A stretch of 57,750 nucleotides of DNA, the filler included, from Perkinsus olseni (Eukaryota): the NCBI GenBank assembly GCA_013115125.1. It is 3 parts of 3 records of this genome, joined end to end, with 100 filler letters (N's around TTAATTAATTAA, not from the genome) between each part and the next. Parts side by side here need not be neighbours in the genome. Positions count along the whole stretch, not along the records: positions 1 to 19,286 come from JABANN010000601.1; 2 more parts are not named here. One strand, 5' to 3'. The notes below the pieces were generated by a model. The model was not told the origin of the DNA. It was given only the letters and a program-made list of their open reading frames with translations, and ran no database searches. A program made the translations under genes and the position numbers. Positions 2,931-44,676 of the stretch are shown here, piece by piece (positions within the stretch are counted from its first letter, which is position 1; every line of letters begins with the position of its first letter).

Positions 2931-4151
2931 CGAGTACTGTACCAGTACTAACTCACCCTGTGTGATCTACACCCCTTGAAAGCACCAGGGCCACCATTAA
3001 AACGGCTCTCCTTTATTTCGCCACAGAAGCGTTGATTTACGTTGCGAGTAAGAATCGTTTCCCTCATACCACTCGCTCATCAACTCGCGTTTCGAAACAG
3101 AGAACTCGTTCCCGTCATCGCGATTGCAATGCCCTTCCATTCTTTAAACGCTCCCTCTCCTCAGACCTCGTCCGTCCTGTCTTCCGGAGATTCTCCCACC
3201 GTCTGCTCCGCGACACTCGGAGATGCCCTCGACCGGGCTGGCATGACGATGATGGTAAAATACTGCAGCACGATGGACGAATTGAGTTCACTTTACACAA
3301 AAAATTTCAGAATAAAACGGATCTGTCGCTACGAATCTTGAAATCTTTTTTGACACATGGTGACCACCAGACGATATCATGTAGTAATAATACAGAGGTT
3401 GATGACAGGGTACCGCAGAAAACAAGATACCCTGGAAAATCGCCACGCATAAGGCAACCGAAAGGAGAGCAGATCTCGATTCGGGATTTAAAAATGGTTC
3501 TCACGATAGACACTACAAGTTGAATCAGTGCAAACACGACGAATTTCGTGGCGCGCGACAAGATTCACGCTGCAATCTAGCGATTTTATGACGACGAGAG
3601 AGAGAAAAAAAGAAGGAATGGCTACACTACAGCACGGGGTCTTGCAATCTTGCTATATCTTGCAATTTCCCAATGCGTAGTCTAAGTCTACTATTTCTTC
3701 CATCACAACCACCATTGCTTTGTGCAGCTCTAGACATGATGTTAAGACGCCGGGAAAATTGAATCAATAATAGCGGAGCGTAGCAGCATGCTGCGGCGTC
3801 TAACCACCAGAGGAACCTAATCGATCAGTCGGGCGAGCGAGATCTCCATTTCGCAAATCTTACAAATCTGACCTCCCTCGATCTTACTTAACTTGGATCG
3901 TAGGCGCTCGGCCACCTGAGAGAGAGTTCCAAATGAACACTCGACGAACCATTCTATAGGGCTCATATGCAAAATCTTGCTTTCTCGCATTTCCTCAACG
4001 TTAAGATATTCACTCAGAAGGTATTGAGGGACTACAGGACCAAATTGTCGAATTCTCATGTCGAATAATGATGAAGAATTTCCCAGGTTCAAATCCCAGC
4101 GGCGACATTTCGAAGTAGCCATAGAACAGTTAGAATCAACCCCCTAGTCAC

Positions 4152-4434
4152 CTCTGTAGTTGAAGTCTTCTTAGCTGCCATCTCAGGACTTGATCGCGGA
4201 CAAATCGTGCCAGTTCTCACCCGTCCATTTGGTCTAGCCGGCGAGGGATACACCATAAATCTCTAAGTCGGGAAGCCACTAGTTCAATTCCCAGCAGTGG
4301 CATTTTATTCGTCACTCTAGAGGGCTGGGGCACTTGCACTCTGACTCTATCCGACCTCCTCGGTCGACTGTGCCGTCGTCCGTATGGCTTCCTGCAGCTG
4401 CTACCAGACCCACACCAAACGGGGGGAGAGGACC
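4152..4434 (-). CDS. Probable Ser/Arg-rich exons, possibly a continuation of the 4734-7725 gene
   Basis: Exons GSSPPVWCGSG...VPQPSR and RFMVYPSPARPNG...KKTSTTE join in phase across a 53-nt GT-AG intron (4263-4315). The link to neighbouring exons is unresolved. Confidence 0.4.
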
Positions 4435-4733
4435 CTGGACAGACCCGAGTTCGATTCCCAGCCACGTCAATATTCTCCACAATTCACAGTGGGTGGGTCG
4501 TCCGATGATATTAAAAAAACTAAACGGCAAAAATGAATTTCCGTAAATTTTCGACTGTAGACTGTAAATTTACGTGTAAAGATGGTCTCTTAGTAATAAC
4601 TACTCAGACTGAACTACAGAATCACCCCATTCCCTGAAAAATGCCCTTTACCTAAAGTTCGTAAAGTCTAGTAAACCTACTACCTAAGGTCTAGTTCTTT
4701 CCAAAAAAAACCGACTTCTGCTTTCTTTCCTCG

Positions 4734-7725
4734 TTACTCGGGAGACTCTGCCTGAACGTCTACGTCCCCGCCCCGGACCTCAGCCTTCGAGTTGGAAACT
4801 CATCCCAGTAAATGAATATCAACCCAAAAAAATCGAGACCACCCATCACCAACTCTATTAATAAAACTACTACGCCAAAAAGCCATCCTCTCTCCACCCA
4901 CCTAGCCCAGGTGCCATCGGCCTGACAAGTTTCCTCCCGAGCGTCGGAGTCGACAATCTGCTCGACCCTCGGCTGCCGACACTCAAGTGCTCACATGGTG
5001 ATGTGCCGCGGCCAGTTCGCGGAGAGGGGGACTTGGACGATCTGCGCTGGAGAGGGCTTGCTGAGAAGACGGAGCGTTGAGGAATCGCAAGAGATCAAGT
5101 GGAGGACCTGCTGTCTTGACGAATACACTCGGCGAAGCGTTGAGAAATAGCAAGAGAGCAAGTGAAGGACCCATTATTTTGACAAACAGACTCGCCAAAG
5201 CGTTGAGAAATAGCAAGAGATCAAGTTAGCGCGAATCACAAGTTTGACTCACACTGCCGATCGGTCATAGGCATCACGTGCCGCTGCACTCGACTGGCAC
5301 TTGGCCGAATAGGTGACTTAGATACCTTCCAAAAAAAGGTCCCAGGTTCGATCCCCGGCCGCGGCATCTCGACACTCACATGACTATCATCGTCCTCAAC
5401 AGAAGAGCCTTTGGGCGAGTTGCTCCCACCATCCGATCCCCGCCCAAAAAGCATCCCCATATCTTCATACTCTTCCGGGCACAGCTCCAACGTATCTTTA
5501 TCACCATCTATGTGAGTAGCGCGCGCCCAGCTGATCGATCTCCTGTAATTACAATTCTGTAATTCTGTAATCGATCTTTTCAATTCATTTGTAAGTAATG
5601 AAATTTATGGAGAAATTGTGATTATCTTTCTCTCCAGAAATTTCAGAGTCCGCATGTAGTTCTCGCAAAAAGCGCGCGCCCGACTGATCGATTAACTGCG
5701 AACCACCTCACCAGCCATGCTTGGCCCAGGCATATCCTTCCGCGTGCGAACGTCGTCGCTCATGTCAAGCTCGGTGGTACCGGCTTCCCCCATCAAAGTA
5801 GGTGAAGACCTCAGCCTCCGTACACTGCCCACTGAATGGAGACCAGCAAGACCCATAATCGATCACCAGGGCGAGCGCTAAATGCATTACCACCATCCAG
5901 TGGATTGTCTTTCTCAGACTTCCTCAGCGCCACCTGATTCCGCAGCTCTCCTCGGGCTTGGCGGATCAGAGCGGCAGCTGTATCAGCGGACAGTCTAAGA
6001 AGACCGATCATTTACGGAAGGAGCGGTATCAAGAAATTAAGCACAAACCTTAATTCGTTTTGTTGGGAAGTGGGCGGTGGGGGCGTGTCCGCGCTATCCA
6101 TCGACAGCTGCGAATAATCACCTTCGTGGAGGGTTGTGAGACAACCTGAGAAGACGGGAAAATTGTATTACTCATCCGGGTCAACGGCCTTTCCGCAATA
6201 GAAAATTCCGAAGTTTCTTTTCGCGCAAAAATAATCTAAATTTTACAAAATTTTCCTCGAATCAGCCCCCATTCACCTAAGCTTCGTCACGACAACCCCC
6301 TCAAGAAACTCCGAAAATTAGCACATCGAAATTTCTCGCTTCAAAAACTAAAATTTTCCACCTCGAAGAAAATTTAGATTTTTCACGTCGAAATTTTTAC
6401 GCAATAAAATGAACTCCGTCATCTCCGTCAAATTATTTCTCGATCCTTTTTTCCACTTCCCAAAATCCACCTTCCAATTTTTCCGAAACTCACGCCCAAA
6501 ATGAGCAGTGAAAGCCCCAAGCTGGGACTGGCCGCGTTGGACGATAAACTTAGAAAATTTATTAGTAATTAAAAAAGAATAAAAATAACTCAAACTCGGC
6601 AGCGCCTACCCCGAGGAGGAGCCAACCTCCTTCCTCCAGTAGCGAGAACCTTGCCGGGTGCCGAGGCTCGAAGAAAATCGTTAATTCGAGAGTCGCCGGA
6701 CGCGTCACTTCCATGCGGGAGCACGCTCGAACTCTCAGGGAAGAAGCCATTAGACAAGGAGGTCGATAACGACAATGATTTGCTTGTTGAGGGAATAGAC
6801 GTCTTCAGCAGCTCAGCCAGGGAAGCCTATGTACATGAATGAGTAATCCAAAGGTCTCCGGTTCGATACCGGCACCTGTCATCCTCACATTTTTTCGCTC
6901 CAGGTCCCTAGCGGTGTTCCAAAGTTCAGCATAGTCCCTCTCGAGGTCCTTCAATGTCGACAACACCTCATCCTTCTCATGCAGCGCTCGAGTCAGCTAC
7001 AACAGCACTCTCATCCGGTTCGAGGTCCCAGGTTCGATCCCCGGCTAGGTTACTTGCTGTTTAATTTTGGCAGTCTCCCCCGCTTTTTCTTGTATCCAAA
7101 ATTCCCGTTCCAATGACTGATCATCAACCTGACTGCATCAGTCCCTACCACTCCTTCCGTAACTCCCCACCTGACGCTGTATCAAAGCCCGAGCTTCCTT
7201 CTCTCTGGCCAACTCCGCCTTCAGTCTACATAACTAAATAGATGACACAGAAGAATTGATGGCCCGACAATCTCGCTCGCCCGAGAAAACCGTTTCACGA
7301 TATTTTCCAGAAAAACCTTCCGTTTCGAAAACCGTACCGTATGGCCTTTAGAAGTCCTCCTGGCTTGATCAACTTCGATCAACAAAGAGTCTGACTGAAC
7401 CACTTCTCGGCGTTGTACTTGAGACTCACTCCCAGAATTTTCCGGAAAATTTTCCGGAAATTTTCTCGCGGCGCCCGAATCGAAAAGCGAACGGAAACGT
7501 GAACCGTCGGGAATGAACCGGAAAAAACCGTTTCATGCATTATTGGGCGAGCGAGATTCCCCTTACCTCCAATTCAACATCTCCCTTTCTAGCGTCTGAT
7601 GATGATCCTGAGGAAAATGGCGAGCTAGCGCCGCCGCCGCCGCTCGAAAAGGCGGGTTTCCGATCTCTGATCTCTCGAGCCGGGGAGGGAGATATAGATA
7701 CCGTGGAGAGGGTGGCTCGAGGCAT
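4734..7725 (-). CDS. Multi-exon hypothetical protein with an N-terminal coiled coil and a long Ser/Pro/Arg-rich region
   Basis: Exons join in phase across GT-AG introns: ...KGDVELE | SQVQRRE...KGHT | LCRLKAELAREKEARALIQRQ | LTRALHEKDEVL...LERKN | ASLAELLK...; later VGSVRR...DMPGPSMA | DGDKDTLEL...DDDSH | VSKSP...DRQ | SSPLQRRSSKSPSPRTG... The middle exons and both termini are uncertain. Confidence 0.55.
5075..5227. repeat. About 2.5 copies of a degenerate ~60-bp tandem repeat (intronic)
   Basis: The core GCGTTGAG(G/A)AAT(C/A)GCAAGAGA(T/G)CAAGT recurs at about 60-bp spacing. Confidence 0.8.
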
Positions 7726-7734
7726 TCAGATAAC

Positions 7735-8105
7735 TATAAAGATAATCGATCAACCGTTTCCTTGTAGGTATACATAGTTATATATCGATCAACTGTTTCA
7801 TTCACATATACAGAGTAAAATAATCGATCGAGCGTTTNNNNNNNNNNNNNNNNNNNNNNNNNNNNNNNNNNNNNNNNNNNNNNNNNNNNNNNNNNNNNNN
7901 NNNNNNNNNNNNNNNNNNNNNNNNNNNNNNNNNNTTTCATTCATATATACAGAGTAAAATAATCGATCGAGCGTTTCATTCATATATACAGAGTAAAATA
8001 ATCGATCGAGCGTTTCATTCATATATACAGAGTAAAATAATCGATCAACCGTTTCATCATAGGTATACATAGTTATAAATCGATCAACCGTTTCATTATG
8101 TACAG
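7735..8105. repeat. 39-bp AT-rich minisatellite spanning an assembly gap
   Basis: Unit TTTCATTCATATATACAGAGTAAAATAATCGATCGAGCG occurs on both sides of the N run, with diverged flanking units. Confidence 0.9.
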
Positions 8106-8857
8106 TAGATGTCAATAGACATTTCTGCCGGCAAAACATGTCATCCCTGGGATTCGAACCCGCGCCCTAATTAATACAACTTAACCTCAACTCCGTTACG
8201 ACTCCCAACGACTATTTATAACATGCTAATACCAGCAATGAGGGTACCTCACAATCGATCACGCGGGCGAGCGCGTTGTGCTATCACGCATCCGCCGATA
8301 TATGCTTGATATTGACGCAAAGCTGGTCCTTGCAAGTCTGAGAAGGAAACCTTTCTTTACTGCAACAGAGCAACTCGAAAAGGTTCATCCACAGTTTGCA
8401 CATTTTTTCGGCCGTTCCCTCACGCGTTACACCCCGCGGTTAAGATCAACATCATCCGTTTTTTCACTCTTTTCATCAGCCATCATCGGCAACCATGAGT
8501 AATTGGTGCCATGTGAGAAAGTTCTTCTATCACTAGGGTAGTGAAAATTAACGTAATTGCACGAAACTAATACTACATCAAATTTTGCCGATTACATAGC
8601 AAATCAACTTCGCGGGGACAACGTCCTCTCGTAAATTGCGAAAAAAGCGAAAAAATGCAATTAAAATGCAATTAAAATACCAATCAAGCGATCAACTTTA
8701 CGTAAACGAGAAACTAATTTACTCACGGCTAAGCCGTGAGTTGAGGCCGCGGAAGCTCAGCTCTCACTCTCTCTGTGGAAGTCTTCCCCTCAAATGCGGC
8801 GGCAAGCTTCGGGTATATGTAGCTCCGAAGCTTCGCCTCAAGTCACCATCCACTCAC

Positions 8858-9325
8858 CATTTTGAAAGCGACTTTCGGCAGCATCAAAAGCTTCTCAAAA
8901 CTCTTCGTATTCGCAAACATAAACGCCAACAGCCGATTCACAAAGGTCTCGCTGGCCTGCTCCTAACATCCGAAAGGTTCATGGTTCGAACCCCACACCC
9001 GTCATTTTTCCGTATACCTCCCCAGGCTTCACAAACCGTATCACTGCCTGCTCTACAGAGCTCACGTCGTGACTCGCTTCGCCATACCAGTACACACAGC
9101 CACTACCACCCTAACACCAATTCATTTAGCGCGCGCCCGGCTGATCGATTTCAGCTCACCAATATCGGGTCAGCATTTCTATCAACATTTTCCCCGATCG
9201 CTCGAAGCACTTCGGCCACTTTTTCTTCGCTTTTGAACATATCCCGAGCCCGCGGATGCACATGCTCTATCCACCGCCTGAAATAGCGATAATTTCGTGG
9301 CGCGCGACAAAATCTCGAAGATTCC
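8858..9325 (-). CDS. Partial model of a conserved alveolate protein, possibly of the His-Me finger ('zinc-binding loop of homing endonuclease'-like) family
   Basis: In-phase exons ...NYRYFRRWIEHVHPR...DPIL | GGSGCVYWYGE...IRFVKPGE (9018-9110) | EQASETFVNRLLAFMFA...PKVAFKM (8858-8962). The family call is from recollection of similar dinoflagellate/apicomplexan proteins. The last exon was not located. Confidence 0.55.
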
Positions 9326-10120
9326 TGAGATCGTGTATCAATAGATTAGTAAGCAATGCGTATATGTATCGCGAGTGTATACAAAAAATTCGTAAAAAAT
9401 CGTAAAAAATTCCGGATTCGAAAAAAGTCGCAACCCGCTATATTGTAATAAGATTTACCTAATTCACATTCTAGACGATACGAGACACGGATTTCTGATA
9501 GGTCTGAAATTACCGCGCGCCACGAAATTCCTACCTAACCAAGTCGTCCAGCTCTACGCCCTGCCGTGGACGATACCCGTCGGTGCTCTCCTCAACAGTT
9601 CGAGTCGTTCCTCGTCTTCCCCTGAGATACCAACAATTCCCCAACTCACACAAAGCCAGAGGGCGACACTCAGGCTGCATAGAACTTTTCACATCGGAAA
9701 GACTCATTTGATGGTACTTTTTACCCGAGAAAAAAATTTACACCGTAACTAAAGTGATGACCGATGCCCTCTGGAATCTCAAACTCATCATTCCATCGCT
9801 GATGAGTAAAATCAACCAATCGCACCGGGAAAAACGAGAGACACTCTTCAAGGCCGCCATCGCCGACGACAGTTGGCCACTCTGCGCGTTTACATCACTT
9901 CCATTGAGACACCTCGTTGGTCGGACCCGAGCGACGTGAGCGAGGATTGAATTAGAAACTCGGAAAAAAACCAAAGGTATTAAGCATGCCTTCTCGTAGC
10001 GACCGTCAAGCCAGCGTCAACAAGCCCACTTCAATGCAGCACCGCAAGGCCATTGCTGAGCCTTTCAGTGATGAACGGCATTCAGACAGACCATACCAAA
10101 CTCTTCGCGAGAAAATAATC

Positions 10121-10178
10121 AAATTTTCCCGAGAAAGAATCTCAAATTTTCCCGAGAAAGAATCTCAAATTTTCCCGA
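10121..10178. repeat. 23-bp tandem repeat, about 2.5 copies
   Basis: AAATTTTCCCGAGAAAGAATCTC repeated. Confidence 0.9.
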
Positions 10179-11280
10179 TCGACCCGAGCCAGCCTCCTCG
10201 ATAAGCCAGCTCGATTACAGAAACTCTGACCACCTCGCCTCAGTCCGATAGATCCATCGTCGGTTCCGATTCGTTACATAACGAAACCGCATCCTGTGCC
10301 AGAACAGAATGGGATGACAATTGAACTAACTACGCCAATCACCTCAGAATGCCGCACTTGGCGCGCGAGAGATGCACTTTGAGCTCTCCACAACAATAAA
10401 GTTATGGCACGGAAGATCGACACGGCGTAAAATTCCCTTCGTTCAAAGACCTAAGCGGTCCGATTTCAGTATGTGAGTTTGTACTTGTCGGAAAAGGTCG
10501 GAAATTTCGCACTTAAAATGCTAGCGCATCCTGAACAGAAGTTTTTCGCTTGTGCTCCGGGAGACTTCAGAGAACTTCTCTCGGTAATCATTCGCTTTCC
10601 GATTTTCACCGTCACGTCGGAAAATGCTTCACTATCCATCACCATGGCTTTACCACACGACCAGCAGTGACTAACGGAAGGAGTCCAGCAATAACATGCA
10701 AAAAAAACCGGAAAAAAATTACCCGCTCGAAAATTCACGAGCCCAGCAGAAAGCGAACAACAAGCGCCTCGCCTATCAATTTTCAATTTTCAACCTTTCC
10801 GAAGTGAGCCCCGATTCCTCAGTACCCGTGCCTTTGTCGCCTCCGATGGTCGCCAGCCGTCCCGAAAATGGCGCCGAAAGGATCCTCGACGCACTGCCGA
10901 CAACGGAACATGATCCAAATCGGGAAAGAGGTGAAACTGTTGGGGGCCACGACCAAGCTGGGGCTATCACCCAGCTATCAAAGAGAAAACTTCTAGGATG
11001 ATCTCAGGATACTCGATTACGAACAGACTCCTACTCGGAATCGTGGCTTCGCACCCGTTCACACACACAGTAATGTATATCGATCAGAGCGGCGGGCAGA
11101 TTCAACATGCTCAAATATTCTTTTCCATCACCGTGCACTGATAGAGGGGGCCAATTACACCTCTCGATTGACAACGGCGTCGTCTTGTCGTCACGACATT
11201 CCGTTAAACCGGGTCCTCACGTGGTTCGGACGGAACTCGCAGGGAACACGATCTTTGCAGCCCTGCACCAGATCCCTCCA

Positions 11281-12132
11281 ATGGCGACCCAGCACATCCT
11301 CATCGCCGCATTAGCTTCTGCTGTATTTATTTCCAACTTACCCGTCGGTAACACACTCGGTGCACTGGCCCCACAAGTTGAAGTAAGCTCATCTGTTGCG
11401 GCTGATTTTGTGATCAAACTCGCTGTTGTGTGGACATCTCGTTGAAATCCTCTGCAATTTTGCGCAGAATTAGAGATTTTCCACCGCTAGTGGACTGGGG
11501 GCTAAATCCAGCTTTCAGCGAAGACGGTTTTGAAGATTGCTATGACGCTTCCTGCGTCTACACCAGCGGTGAAAGGAACACTCACGACTGGACAAATTTG
11601 GAGGTTCAAATCAGGGAGCTCGATTACATCTATACAAAAACCATCGATTGTCCCGGGGCTACCTGGCGGGAAGGATTCAGGAGCGATTTGTAAGGCAGTG
11701 ACTGTGACTGGCTCGTGCGCATACATATTTCCTCTTAAAGATCCTTTATACAGCCCTCTCAGTATGGTCTTCATAAATTCCACACTGGCATCCCAATCGG
11801 TGTTTATTTCCAAGAATTCCAAGCTCGTGGCGAAGATCAAGAATCGCGGGCGCCTCCTATCCCTGCCGGTCTGGATTTTCTAAGAAACTCGATTGATAAT
11901 TCAACCATCACCCCGATATTGGAGGAGCTGAGAAACAGAAACAGCAACTTTCTTATATTTTACAGGACGTATAAAACCTGCCTATAAGTTAGTAAAGAGA
12001 GCCTGTCTCTCCTTGCGCGAGGCCATGATGAAGAAATTCGGTTCGATTGGGGTTATGTGCGATGAGTACTACAGAATGTCGAAGAAGGCCCTCCAGACTG
12101 CCCAGGCAGCAACCAGAAGCGATGTGGCGTGA
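11281..12132 (+). CDS. Lineage-specific secreted protein, multi-exon
   Basis: Signal-peptide-like start MATQHILIAALASAVFIS; GTAAG donors; terminal exon GRIKPAYKLVKRACLSLREAMMKKFGSIGVMCDEYYRMSK...DVA* is conserved with the paralog at 15484-15666. Confidence 0.5.
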
Positions 12133-12409: not shown

Positions 12410-13275
12410 CACCAGCCATGCTAGGCCCAGGCATATCCTTCCGCGTGCGCATATCTTCGTTCATGCCAAGCTCGGTGGTGGGGTCGCTTCTCCCAGCAAA
12501 GTGGGTGAGGACCTCAGGTTGCATAGAACTCTTCACATCAGAAAAAAGCGGAAAATTTTTTTCCGATTTTTTTAACCAAAGAATCATTTGACCCCGTAAA
12601 TTACGGGATGGCCGATGGCCTCTCCATTCCTTTCAAACGCCTCTTTCCATCGCCGGAAAACGCCAAAATGATACGCATGTCTTGAAGACATTGTCTTCCC
12701 TCAGCGACCCTCAATCTAGCATAAACAAGACCACTACGATGCACCGCCGCAAGACCATCGCAAATCCTTCCCTCAATGCACGTCGTTCAGATAAGCCGTG
12801 TCATTTTATTCGCAAAAAAACGCCTGCCAAATTCCCTCGTGAAATGATATATTTTCAAGGAAAAGTCGCAAAACCCGTACAACACACTGAGCGACTCGCG
12901 CCAGCCTCCTCATTAAGCGAACTGAATTACAGAAGCTGTGACGACCTCGCCGCGGTGTGAAAGACTTTTATCGGCACTGATAATTTGTCTGATTTTGTCG
13001 GATAATGAAAACGAATCCTGTGCTCGAACGGGATAGATTCACCATGGAGGTAACTACGCTAACTATCTTCAAATCGAACATGCATGAGCCCGGCAGAAAG
13101 CCGACAACAATCAATGTGTGCGTTACGTACCAATAATCAAATTTAGATTGTCAATTTCTGAAAGTCAGCCTCAATCCCTTACTACCCGTGCCTTCGTCGC
13201 CTCCGATGGTTGCCAGCTGTTCCCAAAAAGGCACCGCATCGATCCTCGACGCACTGCCGACAGCGGAACATCATT
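12410..13275 (-). pseudogene. Degenerate or mosaic paralog of segments at 5712-5815 and 9665-10915
   Basis: Block-wise nucleotide similarity. Peptides TTEL.M..D.RTRKDMPGPSMA and MFRCRQCVED..GA..GTAG.HRRR.RHG are conserved with synonymous changes, but other blocks contain stops. Confidence 0.45.
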
Positions 13276-14565
13276 AAATTTTTAGGGGACTATGAACGGC
13301 ATTCTCATCGAAATTTGGAGCTTTTGGAACATGCTCTAGACGACTGTGAGGGGGCAAGACTGAAACCAGGATCACCTCGAAATGCAAAAATTCCACGAAA
13401 TTTGCTGAGACTACGGAAACAAGAACGACCTACACATACCTCCATCAAATTAAACGAGTATAACTACTTTCAGCATTCTCAACAACCAGGACTTGATCCT
13501 AGGTTGGGAGGCTAGAGCGACTACCCAAAACCCGTCTGGATACTACCATCACACGACACCATTTCCAGACCTACTTAGTTAAACCCCAGAGCATTTGATA
13601 AGCAAATTAGTAATACCCCAAAGTTCAGTTTCATGAAAGACCAATTCAGTAGAGCCCGAGGAAGTCACCAACAGATACGGAACAGCTCACACCCGTCAGC
13701 TTACACGAAGTATTCCCTCGATATCCCACAGACGCAGGTTGAAATTTAATTGTTGAACATTCGAGTTGGGGCTCCGCTGACATGCCTTCCATGGCTGAGC
13801 AACGAGGTTACAATGTTTGGGTGCGATTGGAGCATCGTATACATACACACCGTGTACCTACATATAGTAGTGATCGCTTAAAAACCTTCTAAAGCAACAT
13901 CCCACAGTCCCGCAGAGGTAGTCTGACTTCGGTTTACCGCCTCGCCACTCATGGCCGGAGTCCCCAGGCCGGGAGGAAGGAACCACAATCCAACGCGAAA
14001 GAACACGACGGATATTCGACAGAGTAAGAAAACCGAAAAATGCAGCAACAGACGGGCATGACCGCAGCTCCTAGGAAGCTCCCCGGCAGCAACTCAAATT
14101 TCAGAGGCTCGAGAATTTGCCCTTGGTAGCCGACGTTCGGAGCGGACGGTTCGGACAAAATGAAGCCACCAACGGATCCGTCGTGAATATTCATCAAGAT
14201 ACCGTCGCCTAGGTTCGAACTCGGGACCTCTGATAAACTCAAGCCTAGGAGATTCTCTCATACACAAGCAATAAAGAAACAGGAACATCCTCTATGACTT
14301 GAACACTTATGAAAAACTGGTAGGTGTTTATAAGGCTACCGTGGCCTCGGATTAGAAGTCCAGTATTTAGATTTCCTGAAATAGCGGAAAAGTTGGTATG
14401 CAGCATATGAGATGAGCGTAATGATCCATAGTATCCGAGAAGATTCCGGAGAAAGATGAAGCAAAAAATTATCGTTGTCAAAAAAATTCAACTGAAATCC
14501 AACACAGAAAACTTTATTCGGCCGCTAAAACTTCACGATACGTCAGAAAAATTCTCGGAAGAACT

Positions 14566-17500
14566 TTAATATTTTCCACAGTCCGTGAGCACGAAGCCAT
14601 ACTGCCCGCAGAGAGGACGTGGAAAACGATAAATTCGGAATTTTTCTTCCGCCGAATTCCAGTCCGAATTAGTACCTCATAGTCCTCCAAAGGGAATGAA
14701 TCGACTTCAACTTTTCCTTTCACCCAGGCCTTCAGGGAACTCACCAACTGTGACTCCACTGGATGCTCAACCACCACAACCTCGCCGTTTTCGTTGAAAT
14801 CACCGGGAATAATCAGTTTCTGTACAGAGAGTACCTGAACACGCAGAGAAAAAACATCTACCAAAGACCGAACCCCGTACCTTAGGCTTACCAGGCGACT
14901 AGTACTCATAATGAGCATCTCAACATCTGGTCTCCGAGCCATCTCCACTGATACCGTTTCAAACACCACTTTGATGTCGTGGTCACGGCATGCCTCGAGC
15001 AAGAGCTCCCTGATGGTGCCGCTCAAAACCTGAGTGAGCACTGCCGTTACTCAGCACGCACCGAACGTTCTGCACATGCGAGAGGAGCTAGTAATCCCTT
15101 GACATTCTTTACTTCTCTCATTCTTCACCTTAACATTCCATCATCCCTCGGAGGGGATAGTGCTACTCATTACGCACCGATCGTCTCGTGCATGCGTGCA
15201 TACACGCACATCGTCCTCCCATACACCCGAACCCCCTCCTCCCACCTAGCATTGCTAGGTGGGGGTAAGGCCGTAGCCTATTTGGGGGTAAGGCCGTAGC
15301 CTATTTGGGGGCAAGGCCGTAGCCTATTTGGGAGTAAGGCCGTAGCCTATTTGGGGGCAAGGCCGTAGCCTATTTGGGGGTAAGGCCGTAGCCTATTTGG
15401 GGGTAAGGCCGTAGCCTATTTGGGGGTAAGGCCGTACCCTATTTGGGGAAAAGGCCGTAGCCTATTTGGGGAAAAGGCCGTAGCCGGCTATAAAACCTAC
15501 ATACGCGCTGTTGCAAAATATCTGCATTTCTGTTCGTGAGGCTATGAAGAGAAGATTATGGTCGACGGAAAAGATGTGCGACGAGTACTACAGAATGTCG
15601 AAGTATGTCATCGAAACTGCTGAAGACGAAGGTAGCCCGGCTGGTCTTTATGAACCCCCCGAGTAATTTGATACCAGCGGTAGCGGACCACCTTCTTTCA
15701 CATTGAATTGATATCATCTATCGTAACCTCTTCGCAAGATGCGCAAAAATACTCGCATCTTGAAATGTCTACACCGGTGTAGACGTGGATCCACTGATAG
15801 CTAATCTATAAGACTTTTGATCCTTTTTGACTTCTGATCTGTTGTTTGAGGACATGTTCCCTAAGTGTTGTCACCCTCGAGTACCCTAGAGTTGGCTTAG
15901 GATTCAAGGAACAGTTATCTGTTTGTCTTCATCAATGTCAATCCAAAACTAGGCCTGATAGAGCGGATGACCCAGATGAGTCCGCCCAATCAAGATCTTG
16001 AGACTGAAGACTCCAGTGCTTACACGATTCTCGTTGTCCTGTGAATAGCGATCCAAAGACATTTGATTTGCGCAAATACGCGGTGTCAGGGATCGAACCG
16101 GGATGCGCGCTAATACGCGATGTCAGGGATCAAACCCGGGACCTCCCCAATGAGAACTCCTCACCTTATCCTCTCCAGCGGTGTAGACCTTTCCATTCGC
16201 GACAAAGGCCACATTAGAACTCAGGCCTTCCGTCACGCGGTCATTAGAACCCACCATGACCATCTCCTCTACACCAGTCGCCATCCTCTCGCTGATAGCC
16301 TTCCTCCGCTCCGTCCAGCTCACGTCTTTCACATGGACATTACCTACAGGAAAAATGCCTCATTTTATCGTCGATAATGATTTCGCTTTGATGTTCCCGG
16401 CAGGAGCCAAAGCGGACGATATCAAGATTCTCCATCATCAAGTTCCAAAACTAATGGCTCAATGAGATGCTGACTCTTTTCACCCTACATGTCGTACGAT
16501 TTCAACAATATCCACCCAACCCTCAAGAGCCCGAAAAACGACCAGGGATACCACCAGTAAAAATTTTTGACTGATGAAAAATTCTCCTCGATTGGGACTC
16601 TCGTGTCAAGAGTCGACGAGAAGAATATAGTAATTTTCAATCCGATTTTTAAATATAATCCACAACCTCCCTATAGTGAGTAATACGCTACCCCGCCACA
16701 CCACTCAATCGATTACCTGATCGTTCTCCCCTGGCCAGCTCCGCCACACAGCGGCTGTTCTTGTGCACAGGCAGCGGACAGAGGAACATCCACATGTCCT
16801 TAACTTTATAAGTGATCCCAACCGTCACTTGCGCCTCGAAATCCTCCGCCCTGGCGTGGCCGTTCAAAGCCGCTATGCCCTTAAGGCACATCTCCTTAAC
16901 CTTCTTTCCAAGGGTGTCCAGCTCTGCAGCCTGAAAAAAAGCTAAGAAGGGAAATTCCACATAACCGATATTTCGGAGAAATTTCTGATCGGAAATGCAC
17001 CGGCCCCGGGCGAGGTAGACCACTTGCCTTGCGCTCCACCAAACACTTTCTTCCTTAAGTCAGCTAAGAAGGATAGCAAGAGCCTCCTTCAAGTTCAGGT
17101 AATCACAGCCCCCAATAAAACCTATTCCAGCTTCACTCAGGGCAACACGATAATTCTGTCACAACTATTTTCACCTTTGTTAAATACCCTTTATTATACC
17201 GTAAAATTCGCAACTTAGTATAGCCGATGGTGTTATACCTTCACACTCAACAACATTTTTCATCACTGATAATTAAAACACTCAGTGACTTTCATACCAC
17301 AAATTCCGCAATTAAGCGCTGCGAAACAGTCGACAATAGCGATATACAAATTCAATCATCTAATACTACCACTACGCTACTACTCCGAAAGACGAGGCCA
17401 ACGATCTAAGCACTACCAGATCCGACACAAAGGCCAGCGCGGACGAACCGTCCCACAGCAGCGCTAGCCCTCTCACTATTACATCATCAGTATCCTCATA

Positions 17501-17650
17501 CGCTGCCGAGAGCCTCTTGATGTGTCTATCCAAGGACAGTATCCGAGTAGCGTTGAAAGTGGTTCGCATAGTGGTGAATACACCACCTTCCAGGGCGAGC
17601 GCGTGGAGGAAGGACGCCTTGGTCAGTCCCGGTGGGGTTACCTGAACCAT
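14566..17650 (-). CDS. Class IV PLP-dependent aminotransferase-like protein (D-amino acid aminotransferase / ADC-lyase fold), 6 exons, about 297 aa
   Basis: Exons 17483-17650, 16717-16930, 16165-16343, 14892-15029, 14676-14834 and 14566-14601 splice in phase. Motifs GVFTTMRT, LDRHIKRL, VKDVSW (candidate PLP Lys), EGLSSNVAFV, VLSGTIR, STSRLV. Confidence 0.85.
15261..15485 (+). repeat. 23-bp tandem repeat, 10 cores, spliced-leader-like
   Basis: Unit GCCGTAGCCTATTTGGGGG(T/C)AAG, with cores at exact 23-bp spacing from 15271 to 15478. Confidence 0.95.
15484..15666 (+). pseudogene. Isolated terminal-exon paralog of the 11281-12132 gene, nested antisense in an aminotransferase intron
   Basis: PAIKPTYALLQNICISVREAMKRRLWSTEKMCDEYYRMSKYV...PPE* aligns with GRIKPAYKLVKRACLSLREAMMKKFGSIGVMCDEYYRMSK. 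Confidence 0.7.
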
Positions 17651-19386
17651 CACAGCTCTGAAAATATTTTGAAATAAATTTCTGATAGTTTTTATGCTTA
17701 AAATATTGAAAAATGAAAATAAAATTTTCGTTCGGTTCCCTCCTCTGTCTTCAATAAACTATTTCCAAAAAAGTCAAAATAAAAAATTTTTTCAGTTCGC
17801 TCATTATTATAGAATTGTCTTTAATTAAGCTTCATTAAACTGGCAAATTCCAGCGAACTTATTAACAATTTAATATGCTTTGATAGACTTATTGAACTTT
17901 CGAATTGCTCTGTCTTCAATAAACTATTTCCAAAACTCAGAATCAAACTTCAAAAAATCCTTCGGAGAGAAAGATTCAATTCTTTCAAGAAAGAATTGTT
18001 TTCCCGTGAGATGCTGTACTAAAATCAACAACGACTTTCACTATTTTTCCGTGAAAAACGGAAGCATCCAAAAATACGAACCGAACGAGTAGCGACAGCC
18101 AAGCAGACCAACAATCAATAAAACAATAGAGGAAAGATTCCTCCCAAATGAGAAGTGCCCTCTCATTGGTCCATCTATTCACTATAAAGACAAGAAAAAA
18201 TTACTTCTTTCAATAAAGAGTTAATTTTTCCCCGGAAATGCTACACTACAATCGACTCTGAGTTCCAGTACGAGTTAACTGAGTGACCCCACTATTACCA
18301 GTAGCCTTCCATTGCGCAACAAAGCGTCCTTCTGATCGGCTTCCTTGGGAGCGGCTCCCGGAAGGCCCTTGGTGAGCTCTTCGTTAAAATCGATGATTTC
18401 GTTGAGGGTGATGTTTGACGGTGAAACGGTCGCGGTCATATTTATTAAATATACACTACTGATTCATCCCTTGTCCGCTCTGAAAGCCGACGCTACAGAG
18501 GCTGGCCCGTTTGGTGATAGAAAATGCGGAAAAACGCCATATGCCGGGATCGAACCCGAGTCACGCACGAGACGGTAACAATCAATGTCGTCGTTGGCGG
18601 TCGTCTCCTTCCTACAAGTGCCTCTTCAACCTTCACTGCCAATCGAGCGCCTGGTCGGTCGCCTTTCTTCGGCATTATTGCAGCTTGAGACGGTCCACAG
18701 AAGCTGTGGCCTTCAGAAGACTTTCCATATTACATTTTTACGCATATCGGTGGGGAAGGGAATTCCGTTGTTCTTCAACAATTAGGCGCTCAATCGCCCG
18801 GTCTGCTTCTAGGCAACTCGCTCCCTGTAGTTAAAACAGCAAGAACAGCTTTTCTCGGGGATTTTCTTCGTTTCAATAAAAGGCTTTTCACTCCAGTCAG
18901 TCTCGATGGCTCCCATTCATCATCGCCTCTCGTTGTTGTTTGATAACCACATCCGCGAATTTCCTACTCCTATGGCAACAATGCTACTGAGCTTACGACG
19001 ATCTTGAATAGACCGAGTCCTACGCATTCGTTTTAAGTAAAAGCGGCCAAGACTTTACGCGGGCTTCAATAACAATTAGTACAACCAAGTATTGCGCCCT
19101 ACCGTCACGCTAGAGGACACAGCAAAACTTGAAAGACGAGTATTCAATCATTATTTTCAATCGGTTCTCTACATCCTGAACGCCCCTTCAGGTTGCCCTC
19201 ATTCGGCTAATATTGACAGTGGGTACCCTTCTTGGACTTAGGATCCACTGTGTGGTCACCCTCGTACTCGCTAACACTACTCTTCGNNNNNNNNNNNNNN
19301 NNNNNNNNNNNNNNNNNNNNNNNNNNNNNNTTAATTAATTAANNNNNNNNNNNNNNNNNNNNNNNNNNNNNNNNNNNNNNNNNNNN

Positions 19387-32600: not shown

Positions 32601-35600
32601 GTATCACTGAAGCGCCTGCTACGCCCTCATTCACCACCTCCTAGTAGACCTCGACGAAGCTCTCTCGGCAATTCGGTGGACTTTTTGGCAAAGTTGGTCG
32701 AAAGTGCCGAAATGGCTGCTAATATTGTCGAGAACGTTCGAGCATACCTCTTCAACGGTCTTAATAGTGTCTGCAAGGTCTCTATACTCGTACGCCCGCA
32801 CCAGCACGATCTGAGAGTTCACAAATACTTGTGGGTGTTCCCTCGCAGCCGAGTAGAGTATGTTCGTCTGAGTACGATAAGAAGCCGCGTGAGCGCCGTA
32901 GAATGGGTCAAGGCCGACATCAACAGGAAGGGGAGGATGTTTTCTAGCATCCCAAATTGGGCCAGGGTGTGAGTAGTGAGGATCATATCGTTGGAGGGTG
33001 GGTTCCTCAGACCACCTGAATCGTAGAGGACAACGATGATGATGAGGGGATTGATGGTCGGGAAGATGCTATTGATTCACCCCTTACATAGCCGAGAACG
33101 CTTTCCGGCCGCCATTCGTGGAGCAGTGGATTGAACGTGTTCTCACGGCGTCCTCCCTCACAGTGAATTGCAATTCTTCATACTGCTCTGTGGCGAAGTG
33201 ATAATTGTTGAAACGACAAATTGTGGTATTGCTGTCCGCGTCAAATCGACTGGTGTAGTCCATCTCTGGGTAGCCCTGATCAATGTGATGACAGACTATC
33301 TCAGGAAGGGTGCTGCTGACGGGCGAGTTCTAGTCAGAGCTTTGAAAGGGACGTGGCCAGGCTAGAAGCGCCATAACGCCTCAACGAATAGAGTTCTCAC
33401 ACCGCTCATCCCGCGGACTGCCCCGCTCACCTTGAGGAGGGGCAAACTAGAAAGAAGTTCAACAACGAGAGCAGCTGAGGCTCTGATCATCACCTTCTTG
33501 GAAGGCATGGAACTGGAAGGATTGGACACTGCATAACAGCATGATGATCGTGGCGAATGTGGGACTGTCACCGGAAAGGATGAGCGTTGGCTTGGGCTGA
33601 GAATAGAACTTCTGATGCACGTCGGCCATACGCAAAGGTGCTCCACTTCGCCGTCAGTGAGTTTGGATTCCAAACTTTAAAAGCGTTTTCGTCCGTCAGG
33701 AATGAGTGTTAGGCGATGGAACTTGGGCCGGGCATCTCTCAGCCCTCCTCCGCGCAGTCCACTAGATGCTCCCACCGATGAGGAAAACACTCGGGATCGA
33801 TGGAGCACTCGATGGAACACCGAGTCGGAGCAGTGCTCCGACGAAAGCTTTTCCAAGCCCCACCACGGCCACGCCAACAACGGACACTCACTTGCAGTCT
33901 GCAGAAAAACAGCGAGCCTTCACCACGGAAACCCGAAAAGTTCGTACGAGTCGCGGGCCAACTCCCTCCGAAATACTCGGGAACATCTGACAAGTGAGTG
34001 CCTTCCAGAGACTGAGTTGATATCGGTGGTGCAGCTTTAAATCAAGGAAACTAACTCGGACCGAGTCCTCGATGAAAGAGCACTGGAGATCGACTTCTCC
34101 GAGGGATACACTAAAATCCATGAGCTCTTGGAATCCAAGGCTCGGAACTTGCGGACCGAGCATTTGGACTCGGATCCCGGAAGGCCTCAGCACTTTAATC
34201 GTCCCCAGGTCCGCCGAGGCGCTGGTGTGAACTCTCCCCTTCGAATATGTACAGATGAGACAGTAGCCTTTGAAGTAGGCTGCGCGGTTTTTGAAGCATT
34301 TAGCGAACACAACTTGTCTTCGCCCGATGCTTTGCGAATGGAGTCAGACTCGCCGCCGCAGCCAGTAGCTCCGTTAGTGTACCTAGGGGCGCCGTCACAG
34401 GAGTGAGGAGAAGGAGGCCAGCAGCGGTGGTCCAGTTTACAATGACAAAAAATTATCGACTAAAGTGAAGGACTTGTCGAACTTCCACACTCTTTCGCTC
34501 GCACGGGTAGCCGTTGGATCGCACTGGAACTAATAGCCGATAAAATATGAACTAGAAGTGAGTTCTCCTACAGTATCTCGCTCCGATAAGAAGCTACTAC
34601 GCGGCGGATGGCGGCAAGGAGATCGACAGCAGATCGATCGGATTCCAGAGGGATTCCAAAACTCGGGTGTTGCGTTGGTCTCAATCAGCCGCCGGGCTCC
34701 AACACCATGGTGAAATTTCAGGGAAGATGGAGAGCTTTACGTAGTACTCTATCCGGAGAATCTTTTTACTGGTCAGACGCGAAGCTGAAGTATAGAAAAT
34801 TATTAGAGAAGGGACTCGTGATAACCTAGTAAAAGAAGAGGGTACTCAGAGTCAACCAGAGCCAGTATCGTTTATGAACGTCAAAGGTATCGTCAATGGA
34901 CCTTGTAGAGGGGAGAGAAGGGAAGCTGATAGACTTCCCAGTCATCCCCCATGACCGCGTATCTCTACGGTGCCGAGGCGCCATTGAATGCATAGATGCT
35001 ATCACCACTTTGGCGTTCGTATTCGCTCAGGACTTGGCGGGTCGAGTGCCAACTAACTTAACAACTTCAACGCGACATTCTAGTCCAAATAATAACAGGC
35101 GCCTTTCAACCCAAAATGGACCGCTCTCTGCCGGAGAGGATGAATCACATTTCTTCAACTTCCGCGGGTCCTGGCCAGAGAGAATTCAATGCTCAAGCCA
35201 CGCCAAGGCTGGTTGGAATCGCGCCTCCTGGCCAACCTTCTGTCGGCCTTCGGTGTGAGATGAAGAAGGATTACTACCCCGTCCAACGACCGCCGAGTCC
35301 TTCGCGTAGTTCCACTCGATCTCCATAGACTTAGTCGCAGCGCTGACGGCCGGAATACCCTTCACAAAGCTTTCCAAAGCATCCGCATCTTCCCGCTCGG
35401 AGGTCTGCATGGATCAACCCAATAAGCCACGATGCAGAACACCTAGGCTTGAGCTTACTTTGACTTTAACAATGGCCATTTTGAGAGCATGCAGAATGCT
35501 CACGTTCGGAGATTCCGTCGAGGCAGGGAAGATCTTGCCTAGTTTCTCAGAATTCTGCAACGAGCACAGCTACTTTGACATCCCTACTAGAATAAACATA

Positions 35601-38667: not shown

Positions 38668-39333
38668 AAGAAGGAAGAGGCCAAGCCCAAGAAGGAGGAG
38701 GCCAAGCCCAAGAAGGAGGCCGAACCCGAGAAGGAAGAGGCCAAGCCCAAGAAGGAAGAGGCCAAGCCCAAGAAGGAGGAGGCCAAGCCCAAGAAGGAGG
38801 CCGAACCCGAGAAGGAAGAGGCCAAGCCCAAGAAGGAAGAGGCCAAGCCCAAGAAGGAGGAGGCCAAGCCCAAGAAGGAGGCCGAACCCGAGAAGGAAGA
38901 GGCCAAGCCCAAGAAGGAAGAGGCCAAGCCCAAGAAGGAGGAGGCCAAGCCCAAGAAGGAGGCCGAACCCGAGAAGGAAGAGGTGAAGCCCAAGGAGGAG
39001 GCCGAGCCTGAGAAGGAAGAGGCCGAGCCCAAGGAGGAAGAGGTGAAGCCCGAGAAGGAAGAGGTGAAGCCCGAGAAGGAAGAGGTGGAGCCCAAGGAGG
39101 AAGAGGTGAAGCCCGTGAAGGAAGAAGCTGAGCTTGAAGAGATTGCTTCTACGGAAGAGGAGTCTAAGCCGGAGAGCGAGCTGCCCGAGTCCAAGACGGA
39201 GGTTGAAGCAGAAAAGTCTGTGGATGAGAAGGCTGATGATGAAGATTCTGAAACGGGAAAGTTTTCTGCTGTCGAGGAAGCCGCTGTAGCCCCCACCATC
39301 CAGTCAGCTGTAGTTCCCATCATGATGGCTTAG
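38668..39333 (+). CDS. 3' part of a Lys/Glu-rich repeat protein (KKEEAKP repeats); 5' end lies in the gap
   Basis: Open frame from the gap to TAG at 39331-39333; 21-nt units within an 81-nt higher-order repeat. Confidence 0.8.
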   Translation, partial: KKEEAKPKKEEAKPKKEAEPEKEEAKPKKEEAKPKKEEAKPKKEAEPEKEEAKPKKEEAKPKKEEAKPKKEAEPEKEEAKPKKEEAKPKKEEAKPKKEAEPEKEEVKPKEEAEPEKEEAEPKEEEVKPEKEEVKPEKEEVEPKEEEVKPVKEEAELEEIASTEEESKPESELPESKTEVEAEKSVDEKADDEDSETGKFSAVEEAAVAPTIQSAVVPIMMA

Positions 39334-42703: not shown

Positions 42704-44676
42704 CTAAATAAACCGAGGGCTTTTGGACTGCAGCTCTTCCTCGTTCTCCTGCTGCTCATCATCGTCAGCTAGCTTCAGATTGTCTTGCTTCAGCGACAGC
42801 ATCTTGAACTTATTGGGCTCCACCTCCACTCTGACAGCCACTCGACCATCGTCGGTGACCTATGGGTCACAATGGATGCCAAGGGGAAGGGGCCTCGGAT
42901 GCTACCTTAACGACTTCAGCTGGCTTCCCGTTGTAGTGTTGCGCCTTCACAAGGCCGGTCACTACTACTCGATCACCGTCCATAAATGAGCGTGAGTCGC
43001 CGTACAACTCTTGAGGGACGCTCACCCTGATCAGCACGCATGCACAGAAGATATTTTGTTGCAGCGGCCTACCTGTCGACCAAGGGTTTTGGGATGCTGC
43101 CCTTGCGATACCCATCTGGCAGAAGCATCTGGCTGAAGTTGAGGAGGTTGGGCACTCCCGTGACCTGATGCAGCACGCGTTTTTTCCTCAGAAGCTCCCG
43201 CCACGGTGAGCCACCTCAAAAGGCAGCAAGGGCAACTGTACGACGGACAAGTTTGCGTCGGCGACCTCAGGGAAGTTGCAGAGCTCACTCAGGTACTTCT
43301 GCTGAATCGAGTTTCTGAAAAACGACATTGAAACTTAGCGGAGCGATGCAGCTTCCTCACCGGGCCCGGCAGAACTGAAGCGCGTCTGCAACTATACTCC
43401 ACTGTGCCTTGCCAAGAGCCTAAGGGAATATGGTAATCTACAATCATGGACTTCGGTGCGGTACTTCCTCGCCCTTCCGAGCGATGGTGGCATCGTCAAT
43501 CGGCAAGGTGGTGAAGTCGCCGAGGACAAGTTGATTCACAACAACGTGTGAGACCGCGACTTGGTCCTTGTGAAGCTCCTGAAGAAATCTACTGTGAACC
43601 GCCACACGCCACAAAATTCGCTCACCCTTAGAAGCCTCTGACTCTCTTTAATGCTGAGGTACTCAGCAATGCATACCACAACAAACGTAGTTCTCATCCG
43701 ATCCTTCAGCATTCGGCCAACCTTCTCAATACCCTTCTTGTAGTCGCGTATCCTCGAGGTCACCTACAGCCCTTATCACTTAAACTCCCCCGTGACGATG
43801 AACGCGCAGTACCTTCTTCCGCAAGGCTTCCGTTTGCGAGTAATTACCACCTTTCACCATCTGCCAGTACTGCCAGAGGGATGTCTGCCAGGACTCCAGC
43901 TTAGTCAGCCCGACCTGAGATCAACCGAGAAGCCCTCGTCCGTTGAAGTCGGTACAGCGGAGCTCGCCACAGTCCGGAGCGTCCTGAGGCGCTTCCCTCA
44001 CCTGCAGGATATCGGGTAGCTGTAGCAGCTTCAGGGTATGGCCCGTCGGGGCTGTATCGAAGACTATGATGTCATAGTGACCGCCCTCTAGCAGGTCTAC
44101 TACGGACGAGAGGGCAGTGGCCTCGTCAATACCGGGTATGCCCGAGATCCAGTCCTGAAGGGGTCACTGCAACTCCGATGCTCCTGAGCAGCCACCTCCC
44201 TTCTACTTGAAGTTTTTCGACGTTGTCAATAAGGTCATTGTAGCCGGCCTGGTTGGCGAGCTGGCCCCACTGATACAGCTCCTCCGCTAGGTATGTGTGA
44301 GGGTTGATCTCGAGCACGTCCAAATTCGGAACGCCTGGTACTGGGGTGGGCTGAACGAGAACCCCATCGAGCTTCGCTGTCGCCCAATCCACCGAGCACT
44401 ACCTCACCACCGAACCGTGTTCTGAAGGCGTCACCCAGACTGTGAGCTGGGTCTGTTGAGAGCAAGAGGACCTTGCGCGTGTATGCTAATTGCATGGCGA
44501 TCGCTGAGGAGGTTGTGGTCTTGCCTGACACCGAGGCCCTCCAAACCACGCCACTACTCCCCGCTACTATTACCGACACCCCCCTTTCCGCCGACGAATA
44601 TGAATTTAAGATTCGGGTCTTCGACTATCTTGTCGATGTAAGCCTGTCGGTCGTGGGCCGAATTCACGGAGTTCAT
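42704..44676 (-). CDS. Get3/ASNA1/ArsA-family ATPase with an added C-terminal SH3-like module; about 12 exons
   Basis: [13 protein letters not shown]-loop, [63 protein letters not shown]; introns splice in phase. Confidence 0.9.

Follow-up and report, generated by a model that had tools for sequence, protein, structure and literature searches.

A spliced-leader-like tandem array beside an orphan coding fragment in an intron of an aminotransferase-fold gene of Perkinsus olseni

The stretch of DNA analyzed here (the window) comprises 57,750 nucleotides of the Perkinsus olseni assembly GCA_013115125.1, joined from three parts of three records. Within an intron of a minus-strand gene of the class-IV aminotransferase fold, it contains a tandem array whose 23-nt unit resembles the spliced leader (SL) of this trans-splicing lineage, together with an orphan coding fragment homologous to the C-terminal part of a family of small secreted proteins; both lie antisense to the host gene (Table 1). 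The array is probably a decayed representative of the tandem "pseudo-SL" repeats already known from Perkinsus, placed beside that fragment. The source of the DNA as an SL trans-splicing perkinsid is borne out by protein matches: the selenophosphate-synthetase (SelD) open reading frame (ORF) at 44926-45963 (minus strand) is 97% identical to a P. olseni protein, and the host gene matches the P. olseni protein P0125 (332 aa, Pfam PF01063) at 94-98% identity in three of five tblastn segments, the other two (80-81%) lying where the alignment passes an exon edge or crosses an intron of that model. Identity to the P. chesapeaki protein P0126 is 69-89%. Both proteins run from ...VYTAGEDK/GADK (to 16165) straight into VLSGTIRELL (from 15029) on the minus strand, and thus splice across the region that holds the array, in agreement with the initial annotation, which had placed it inside another gene's intron. 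The splice sites of this intron are AAG/GTGAGG and CAG/, and its length of 1,135 nt exceeds that of the gene's other introns (~370-650 nt in the exon map). The class IV aminotransferase domain (PF01063) was matched on the exon at 16123-16359 (E 1.3e-6). The last host exon was recognized neither among PDB sequences nor by NCBIfam, and its identity follows from the matching P. olseni and P. chesapeaki proteins.

Tandem Repeats Finder (TRF) reported the array at 15260-15485 with a period of 23, 9.8 copies, 95% matches, and no indels. A pattern search recovered nine full units (0 expected, 100 shuffles), six of them fitting GCCGTAGCCTATTTGGGGG(T/C)AAG exactly (four T-variants and two C-variants) and three deviating by 1, 2, and 3 bases. 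The array described in the initial annotation is therefore real, although only nine of its ten claimed cores are full units, the last being a 9-nt stub. Four units read GCCGTAGCCTATTTGGGGGTAAG, two have C in place of T before AAG, a single unit carries GGGAG, and two end in GGGGAAAAG, one of these also having GTACCC. The terminal AAG is present in all nine units, as are TTTG and GTAG. Units 5-7 do not differ from one another, GGGGAAAAG is common to units 8-9, and the C-variants are units 2 and 4; replication slippage or unequal exchange would leave like variants adjacent in this way. With its near-identical tandem units, clustered variants, and partial end units, the array is in line with a slippage-type minisatellite.

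Both borders of the array carry short palindromes. Before unit 1 lies a diverged partial unit, the final 15 nt of which (CTAGGTGGGGGTAAG) agree by eye with the 3' part of the unit at 13 of 15 positions, and the right arm of the hairpin at 15241-15263 is the beginning of this partial unit. The hairpin had been proposed before, and its stem is slightly better than claimed (11 bp with a 1-nt loop, or equivalently 10 bp with a 3-nt loop). Perfect stems of 10 bp or more occur at seven loci in the window, this one included, compared with 0-3 per shuffle in 20 block-shuffles. At the other border, the left half of the junction palindrome is the end of the stub, so that the array is joined through TAGCCGGCTA to the same-strand fragment as originally described. 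Short perfect palindromes are enriched window-wide (e.g., a 47-nt perfect palindrome with a 23-bp stem and 1-nt loop at 2884-2930), and the host intron has two more, a hairpin with a 9-bp stem at 15735-15762 and a perfect 18-nt GTCTACACCGGTGTAGAC at 15767-15784. A 31-nt inverted match (77%) ties this palindrome region (15735-15784) to the adjoining host exon (16172-16202).

Table 1. Features of the array locus and of the related sequences in the window.
Feature	Position	Strand	Basis or remark
Block upstream of the parent gene, 1.2 kb	9669..10914	+	Three blastn segments versus second copy
Paralog ("parent") gene, signal-peptide-like start	11281..12132	+	C-terminal segment from acceptor-like site 11966 is the fragment's counterpart
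Second copy of the upstream block	12513..13274	+	Orphan fragment lies 2.2 kb downstream
Last coding exons of the host gene	14676..15029	-	VLSGTIRELL from 15029; small internal intron in the P. olseni model
Host intron, 1,135 nt, class-IV aminotransferase-fold gene	15030..16164	-	P0125 and P0126 join 16165 to 15029
Perfect palindrome CCCACCTAGCA-T-TGCTAGGTGGG, 5' border of the array	15241..15263	.	Stem search
Diverged "zeroth" partial unit (...GCTAGGTGGGGGTAAG) before unit 1	15247..15269	+	Compared by eye
Nine full 23-nt units	15270..15476	+	Consensus GCCGTAGCCTATTTGGGGGTAAG; SL-like along entire length; SL alignments and null distributions
Truncated tenth unit GCCGTAGCC, 9-nt stub	15477..15485	+	Sequence reading
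Junction palindrome TAGCCGGCTA, array/coding fragment	15481..15490	.	Sequence reading
Orphan coding fragment, 59 codons and TAA, C-terminal segment of a small secreted-protein family	15487..15666	+	tblastn E 5e-14
Host exon upstream of the intron, ends ...VYTAGEDK	16165..16344	-	98% identity to P0125
Distant third family member, one uninterrupted ORF	32634..33068	-	22% to P0123, 131 aligned columns, E 6e-7

The likeness of the unit to spliced leaders was scored over all rotations and both strands against three references, PmaSL1 and PmaSL2 of P. marinus and DinoSL of dinoflagellates, as printed in the papers. The unit aligns with PmaSL1 from first to last base at 16 of 22 positions with one 1-nt gap (the C-variant, by own count, at 17 of 22), and with DinoSL at 17 of 21 specified bases plus an allowed G at the degenerate first (D) position, or 18/22, again with one 1-nt gap. 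The by-eye estimate of about 17-18 of 22 against the dinoflagellate leader is thus upheld for DinoSL, and the computed figure for the P. marinus SL is lower, at 16/22. The shared positions (the exact 8-mer CCGTAGCC, an in-register TTGG, and the terminal AAG) extend over the entire unit, whose period of 23 is near the SL length of 21-22. Of the SL 5' motif ACCGTAGCCA, the unit keeps CCGTAGCC, but its first base is G and its tenth position differs. The consensus unit scored 11, a value attained by 9 of 20,000 shuffled units and 13 of 20,000 random 23-mers of the window (per-unit p 4.5e-4 to 6.5e-4). The two C-variant units scored 13, which was reached by 2 of 20,000 shuffles and by none of 20,000 window 23-mers. 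Among the 31 TRF repeat units of the window, the next best score was 8 and the others were at most 3. The resemblance therefore exceeds chance for the single unit and is only moderately significant after correction for the window (p ~0.02), which makes the match suggestive rather than conclusive. When the shuffle statistics are combined with the prior given by the known SL-like repeats of Perkinsus, it appears quite probable that the unit descends from an SL.

Elsewhere in the window, the canonical P. marinus SL was not found at up to three mismatches, the 15-nt relic form of the SL gave 3 matches (1.8 expected), and the SL 3' 9-mer gave 13 (15.8 expected). No paper was found in a literature search with the unit sequence as a string, and a search on repeats in the P. 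olseni genome yielded nothing of relevance among the records listed. The SL likeness of the array flanks was dropped as evidence, with scores of at most 4 and many gaps needed; the flanks do hold some curious strings, namely ACC-TAGC-AT-TG from 15244 and GGCT after the last stub. Two single sites in the window recall the leader. The sequence at 49505-49528 (CCGTGCCATCTTGTTTGAAG) keeps the Perkinsus CCATCTTG core and lies ~260 nt upstream of an intron-less plus-strand ORF (49784-51100). It may be a genuine, old relict of the SL at a retrogene or a match by chance, with roughly one hit of this kind expected per window. The other, a tandem pair of 13 nt at 43113-43138 (CATCTGGCAGAAG / CATCTGGCTGAAG), is similar to the 3' 13-14 nt of PmaSL2, the form expected of a recycled relict; it sits amid minus-strand ORFs (e.g., 42867-43187) with no obvious downstream gene on the plus strand. 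A second repeat with a 23-nt period occurs at 10119-10178 (TCAAATTTTCCCGAGAAAGAATC, 2.6 perfect copies), inside the duplicated upstream block, with an SL score of 0.

The anatomy of the array excludes that it is an SL RNA gene. Such genes are marked by an AAG/GTA boundary, a stem-loop intron, and a poly-T terminator (PMC9399869, PMC3101222), and the Perkinsus transcripts PmaSLRNA-L and PmaSLRNA-S are given as 80-83 nt long (PMC3101222). In the array, AAG is followed by GCC and not GT in 9/9 units, the next unit begins at once with neither intron nor poly-T tract (the longest T-run is 3), and what follows the array is the gene fragment rather than an SL intron; beyond the exon-like sequence, none of the tested features of an SL RNA gene is present. 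A search of the whole window with Rfam at the gathering threshold returned no SL RNA, tRNA, or other relevant match, the region 14800-16400 searched at E up to 10 gave only a meaningless lncRNA match (E = 2), and ARAGORN found no tRNA. The earlier suggestion of a divergent SL-type array consequently fails if SL RNA genes are meant. An array of functional, divergent SL RNA genes supplying a variant leader would have in its favor the SL-sized unit with an SL-like 5' half and terminal AAG, as well as the diversified SL types described for Perkinsozoa (PMC9399869), but it would have to do without donor, intron, and terminator, in no space for a transcript of the proper length, within an intron of a protein-coding gene that runs on the opposite strand, and with no Rfam match; it is considered extremely improbable.

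Several SL-related systems offer a closer comparison. According to Zhang et al. (2011, PMC3101222), the P. marinus genome contains more than 100 sequences with recognizable PmaSL1 or PmaSL2 and no downstream intron, gathered at 85-100% identity, which are mostly tandem, have variable downstream sequence, and in most cases start with T; 3' RACE and RNA blotting of these intron-less repeats gave no clear products. Intron-less tandem repeats of SL-exon-like sequence, objects of the kind proposed in the initial annotation, are accordingly documented in Perkinsus. The present array is like those repeats in its genus, in its head-to-tail units of SL length, in the lack of a following SL intron, in its variable downstream sequence, and in not being SL RNA genes. 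It is unlike them in that its unit is 73-77% identical to PmaSL1, is 23 nt long (theirs are 21-22), and starts with G, and in that the array is intronic and abuts a gene fragment. In dinoflagellates, up to eight DinoSL relicts per gene are reported, some directly adjacent (PMC6050394, PMC5585692, PMC12014239), and relicts recycled by re-splicing at an internal AG lack the first 7 nt and stack with a 15-nt period, the 3'-most ending with AAG at the gene (PMC12014239). Retrogenes with SL relicts have been reported both in dinoflagellates and in P. marinus (Slamovits and Keeling 2008, cited in PMC6050394), and a role as basal promoters, by way of TTT(T/G), has been suggested for DinoSL relicts (Song et al. 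2017, PMC5585692; PMC6050394). The array shares with DinoRL relicts a sense SL-like sequence directly 5' of coding sequence (it ends at 15485, and the homology of the fragment starts at 15489/15490 on the same strand) and multiple tandem copies. In contrast to those relicts, it is built of full-length units with the last one cut short on its 3' side, no retrocopy hallmarks were found, and a paralog of the fragment is nearby.

Of the features of Perkinsus SL RNA genes, the unit has the CCGTAGCC core, an Sm-site-like T-rich/GG center, and the terminal AAG; the GT donor, intron, poly-T, and neighboring U2/U4 snRNA genes are absent, and the period is 23 nt. The SL exon itself is described as having 5' ACCGTAGCCA and a final octamer that ends in AAG and is conserved across all known dinozoan SLs (PMC9399869). 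Ordinary intronic minisatellites resemble the array in its 95% unit identity, in variants shared by neighboring units, and in partial units at both ends. They differ from it in that the array shows a whole-length likeness to the SL of its own lineage and has palindromic micro-duplications at both borders.

The coding fragment downstream of the array is a true paralog of the last segment of the gene at 11281-12132, as had been claimed: its translation (15490-15624) is 53% identical to that of 11971-12105 over 45 aa (tblastn E 5e-14). An exhaustive protein search with the latter, C-terminal segment gave one real relative, the 168-aa protein P0123, which maps to 11281-11382, 11475-11528, 11853-11966, and 11959-12105, its N-terminus being 91% identical to exon 1. 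The fragment itself is 67% identical to P0123 over 48 aa (E 4e-22) and shares with it the motif TAEDEG, which the neighbor gene has lost. A comparison of the fragment with longer proteins only gave no match, a weak negative given that P0123 surfaced only in the exhaustive search. Between fragment and neighbor, DNA identity is 65%, with 14, 10, and 23 differences at codon positions 1, 2, and 3, and dN/dS is ~0.15 over 45 codons with dS saturated. These values suggest an old copy that spent much of its history under coding constraint, which is not proof of present use. The homology of the fragment starts within 4 nt of an acceptor-like site of the neighbor (ttttacag/G, 11965/11966). This onset at an exon edge is non-discriminating, because at such an age only selected sequence would still align. 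The same part of the neighbor gene (11853-11990) shows a change of frame between ...TPILEEL (the frame of 11739) and RIKPAYK (the frame of 11932), with no GT donor between the two, and neither P0123 nor the paralog at 32634-33068 is interrupted there; a 97-nt intron (11869-11965), an error in the assembly, or a frameshift could account for the change.

The surroundings of the fragment point to a local, DNA-level origin. Its nearest paralog lies 3.5 kb upstream on the same strand, and the blocks at 9669-10914 and 12513-13274 are colinear at 65-75% identity in three blastn segments (E 3e-9 to 1e-32), the second block beginning at the end of the first unit, in the arrangement of a tandem DNA duplication. 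The same-strand paralog at this short distance and the colinear upstream block are among the reasons why a DNA-level duplication is favored over a retrocopy. The interiors of the duplicated units (10915-11965 versus 13275-15486) have nothing in common, with a local alignment score of 22, against 22.4 +/- 1.8 for shuffles.

Taken together, these observations are best explained, at a probability of roughly 0.5, by a non-coding minisatellite of 23-bp units, each a decayed SL exon (a "pseudo-SL"), which adjoins a fragment that came by a local, DNA-level route. The fragment would have arrived through duplication or template-switch repair from the neighboring paralog, not by retroposition, with a single SL-like seed being fixed at its 5' breakpoint. 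The short inverted duplications at both borders of the array are possible scars of that duplication or repair event. Replication slippage or unequal exchange would later have amplified the seed, and the amplification would be much younger than the duplication, since the units are 95% alike whereas fragment and paralog have ~65% DNA identity. The GTAG and GGTAAG motifs and the G-runs on the plus strand of the array, which the initial annotation had listed in part, would be mere by-products, and the array is most likely functionless.

A number of findings weigh against this interpretation. After correction for the 31 repeat units of the window (31 x 6.5e-4), the p value of the SL likeness is only ~0.02, and a single-copy site in the window (49505-49528) likewise scores 11, with three further sites at 10. 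The conserved 3' octamer of dinozoan SLs (GGCTCAAG) is matched by the unit at 5/8 positions and by the C-variant at 6/8, the Perkinsus-specific TCTT core is missing from the SL alignment of the unit, the first base is G rather than the T usual in P. marinus pseudo-SL repeats, and an identity of 73-77% to the Perkinsus SL falls under the 85-100% collection range of Zhang et al. A canonical SL or relic is nowhere in the window, so that no intermediate forms are seen. The duplication itself is also awkward: the second block and the fragment are separated by the last exons of the host gene (14676-15029, minus strand), a placement that a tandem duplication does not easily explain, and therefore any such event would have been followed by more rearrangement. 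Exons 1-3 of the neighbor left no trace, which is hard for a tandem-duplication route; no second copy of them was found in the window by tblastn or local alignment. The fragment moreover appears constrained (intact ORF, dN/dS ~0.15, 67% identity to P0123), which sits uneasily with dead debris.

Among the rival explanations, chance resemblance would make the array an ordinary G-rich intronic minisatellite, perhaps at a duplication breakpoint, with no historical link to the SL. The modest window-corrected significance, the equal score of the unrelated single-copy site, the loss of both the 3' octamer and the TCTT core, a variation among units typical of slippage, and the existence of another 23-nt-period repeat (10119-10178) without any SL likeness would all be expected under this explanation. 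It has more difficulty with CCGTAGCC, TTGG, and AAG spanning the unit in register at a period near the SL length and at the per-unit p values given above, with a C-variant score that shuffled and window sequences hardly ever attain, with a lineage known for many SL-like tandem repeats (PMC3101222), and with the sense orientation of an array that abuts the 5' end of a coding fragment; on balance, it is regarded as unlikely, though far from negligible. The retro-insertion favored in the initial annotation holds instead that an SL was trans-spliced to the last-exon acceptor, that the mRNA was reverse-transcribed into the aminotransferase intron, and that the relic was then amplified. A sense SL-like sequence directly 5' of the fragment, homology that begins no more than 4 nt from the acceptor-like site, the presence of the terminal segment alone, its location in an intron of an unrelated gene that is longer than that gene's others, and the SL-relict retrogenes reported from dinoflagellates and P. 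marinus (PMC6050394) all suit such an event. Nevertheless, a retrocopy landing by chance 3.5 kb from its own paralog, on the same strand and next to a co-duplicated block, is very unlikely. Neither a poly(A) remnant downstream of the fragment (longest A-run 5) nor a target-site duplication across the borders (one shared 8-mer, 1.1 expected) was found, although the age of the fragment (65% nucleotide identity) could have erased both. The array meets the fragment through a truncated unit (GCCGTAGCC/GGC...) and not as AAG/exon, its units are full length (period 23) and not the 15-nt relics of SL recycling (PMC12014239), the intron at the start of homology is uncertain given that P0123 and the 32634-33068 paralog read through, and a homology limit at an exon edge is equally expected after an old DNA duplication. 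The claim of a retro-inserted fragment is therefore not supported, and retro-insertion is judged improbable.

Expression of the fragment would give the locus a different character. If the repeats supplied TTTG promoter-like boxes and AG trans-splice acceptors, they could keep the orphan exon in use as a nested mini-gene. The 59-codon open frame with its low dN/dS and third-position excess, the ancestral TAEDEG motif retained as in P0123, the TTTG and GTAG in each unit, and the proposal that DinoSL relicts serve as TTT(T/G) promoters (PMC5585692, PMC6050394) are compatible with this possibility. An upstream exon, a start codon context, and a signal peptide were not found, however, and the first in-frame Met leaves only 40 codons; in addition, the candidate acceptor is preceded by purine-rich sequence, and the skew among codon positions can be explained by constraint on the lineage of the paralog alone. 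Such a mini-gene is judged very unlikely. Much the same holds for a birth of a gene at the level of the exon in Perkinsozoa, driven by the SL, in which the leader would have been spliced onto an internal acceptor, SL and last exon copied back together into another gene's intron, and the amplified repeats would now provide promoter boxes (TTTG) and trans-splice acceptors (GTAG) through which a still-constrained orphan exon is expressed as an antisense mini-gene nested in its host; little likelihood is assigned to this sequence of events. The decayed pseudo-SL minisatellite beside a locally duplicated fragment remains the preferred reading.

Some further features of the window were recorded. A 37-nt tandem duplication (84-88% identity) in the host intron at 16065-16141 resembles, on the minus strand, the T-arm and acceptor end of a tRNA (GGTTCGATCCC...); nothing was called there by ARAGORN or Rfam, and the element could be a tRNA-derived (SINE-like) remnant. 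In the P0126 model (1,063 aa), the aminotransferase-fold gene and the next gene on the minus strand form a single unit (4149-9623, 14670-18439) that skips the 5 kb with the duplicated blocks and the secreted-protein gene, and P0125 bears the source name "Quiescin Q6 sulfhydryl oxidase" yet carries PF01063 alone; the fusion and the naming look like annotation artefacts. A coding repeat of 21/81 nt with KKEEAKP-type units occupies 38668-39125. The window contains five N-runs (273 N in total), and its composition changes from an intron-rich left half with 40-50% GC to a right half (from ~40 kb) with 51-58% GC and long intron-less ORFs.

The array leaves unchanged the picture of P. marinus drawn by Zhang et al. 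2011, as this kind of object is already known in the genus. For annotation, the locus illustrates that arrays of this kind are not to be labelled SL RNA genes, and that an SL-like sequence by itself is no proof of retroposition. Wider interest would arise only if the unlikely reading of an expressed orphan exon driven by SL-like repeats were true. If the unit is SL-derived, the locus would be a further example of the SL system littering perkinsid and dinoflagellate genomes with leader-like DNA, one more decayed than the catalogued examples, in which a seed was amplified to a minisatellite inside a gene and beside a duplicated fragment.

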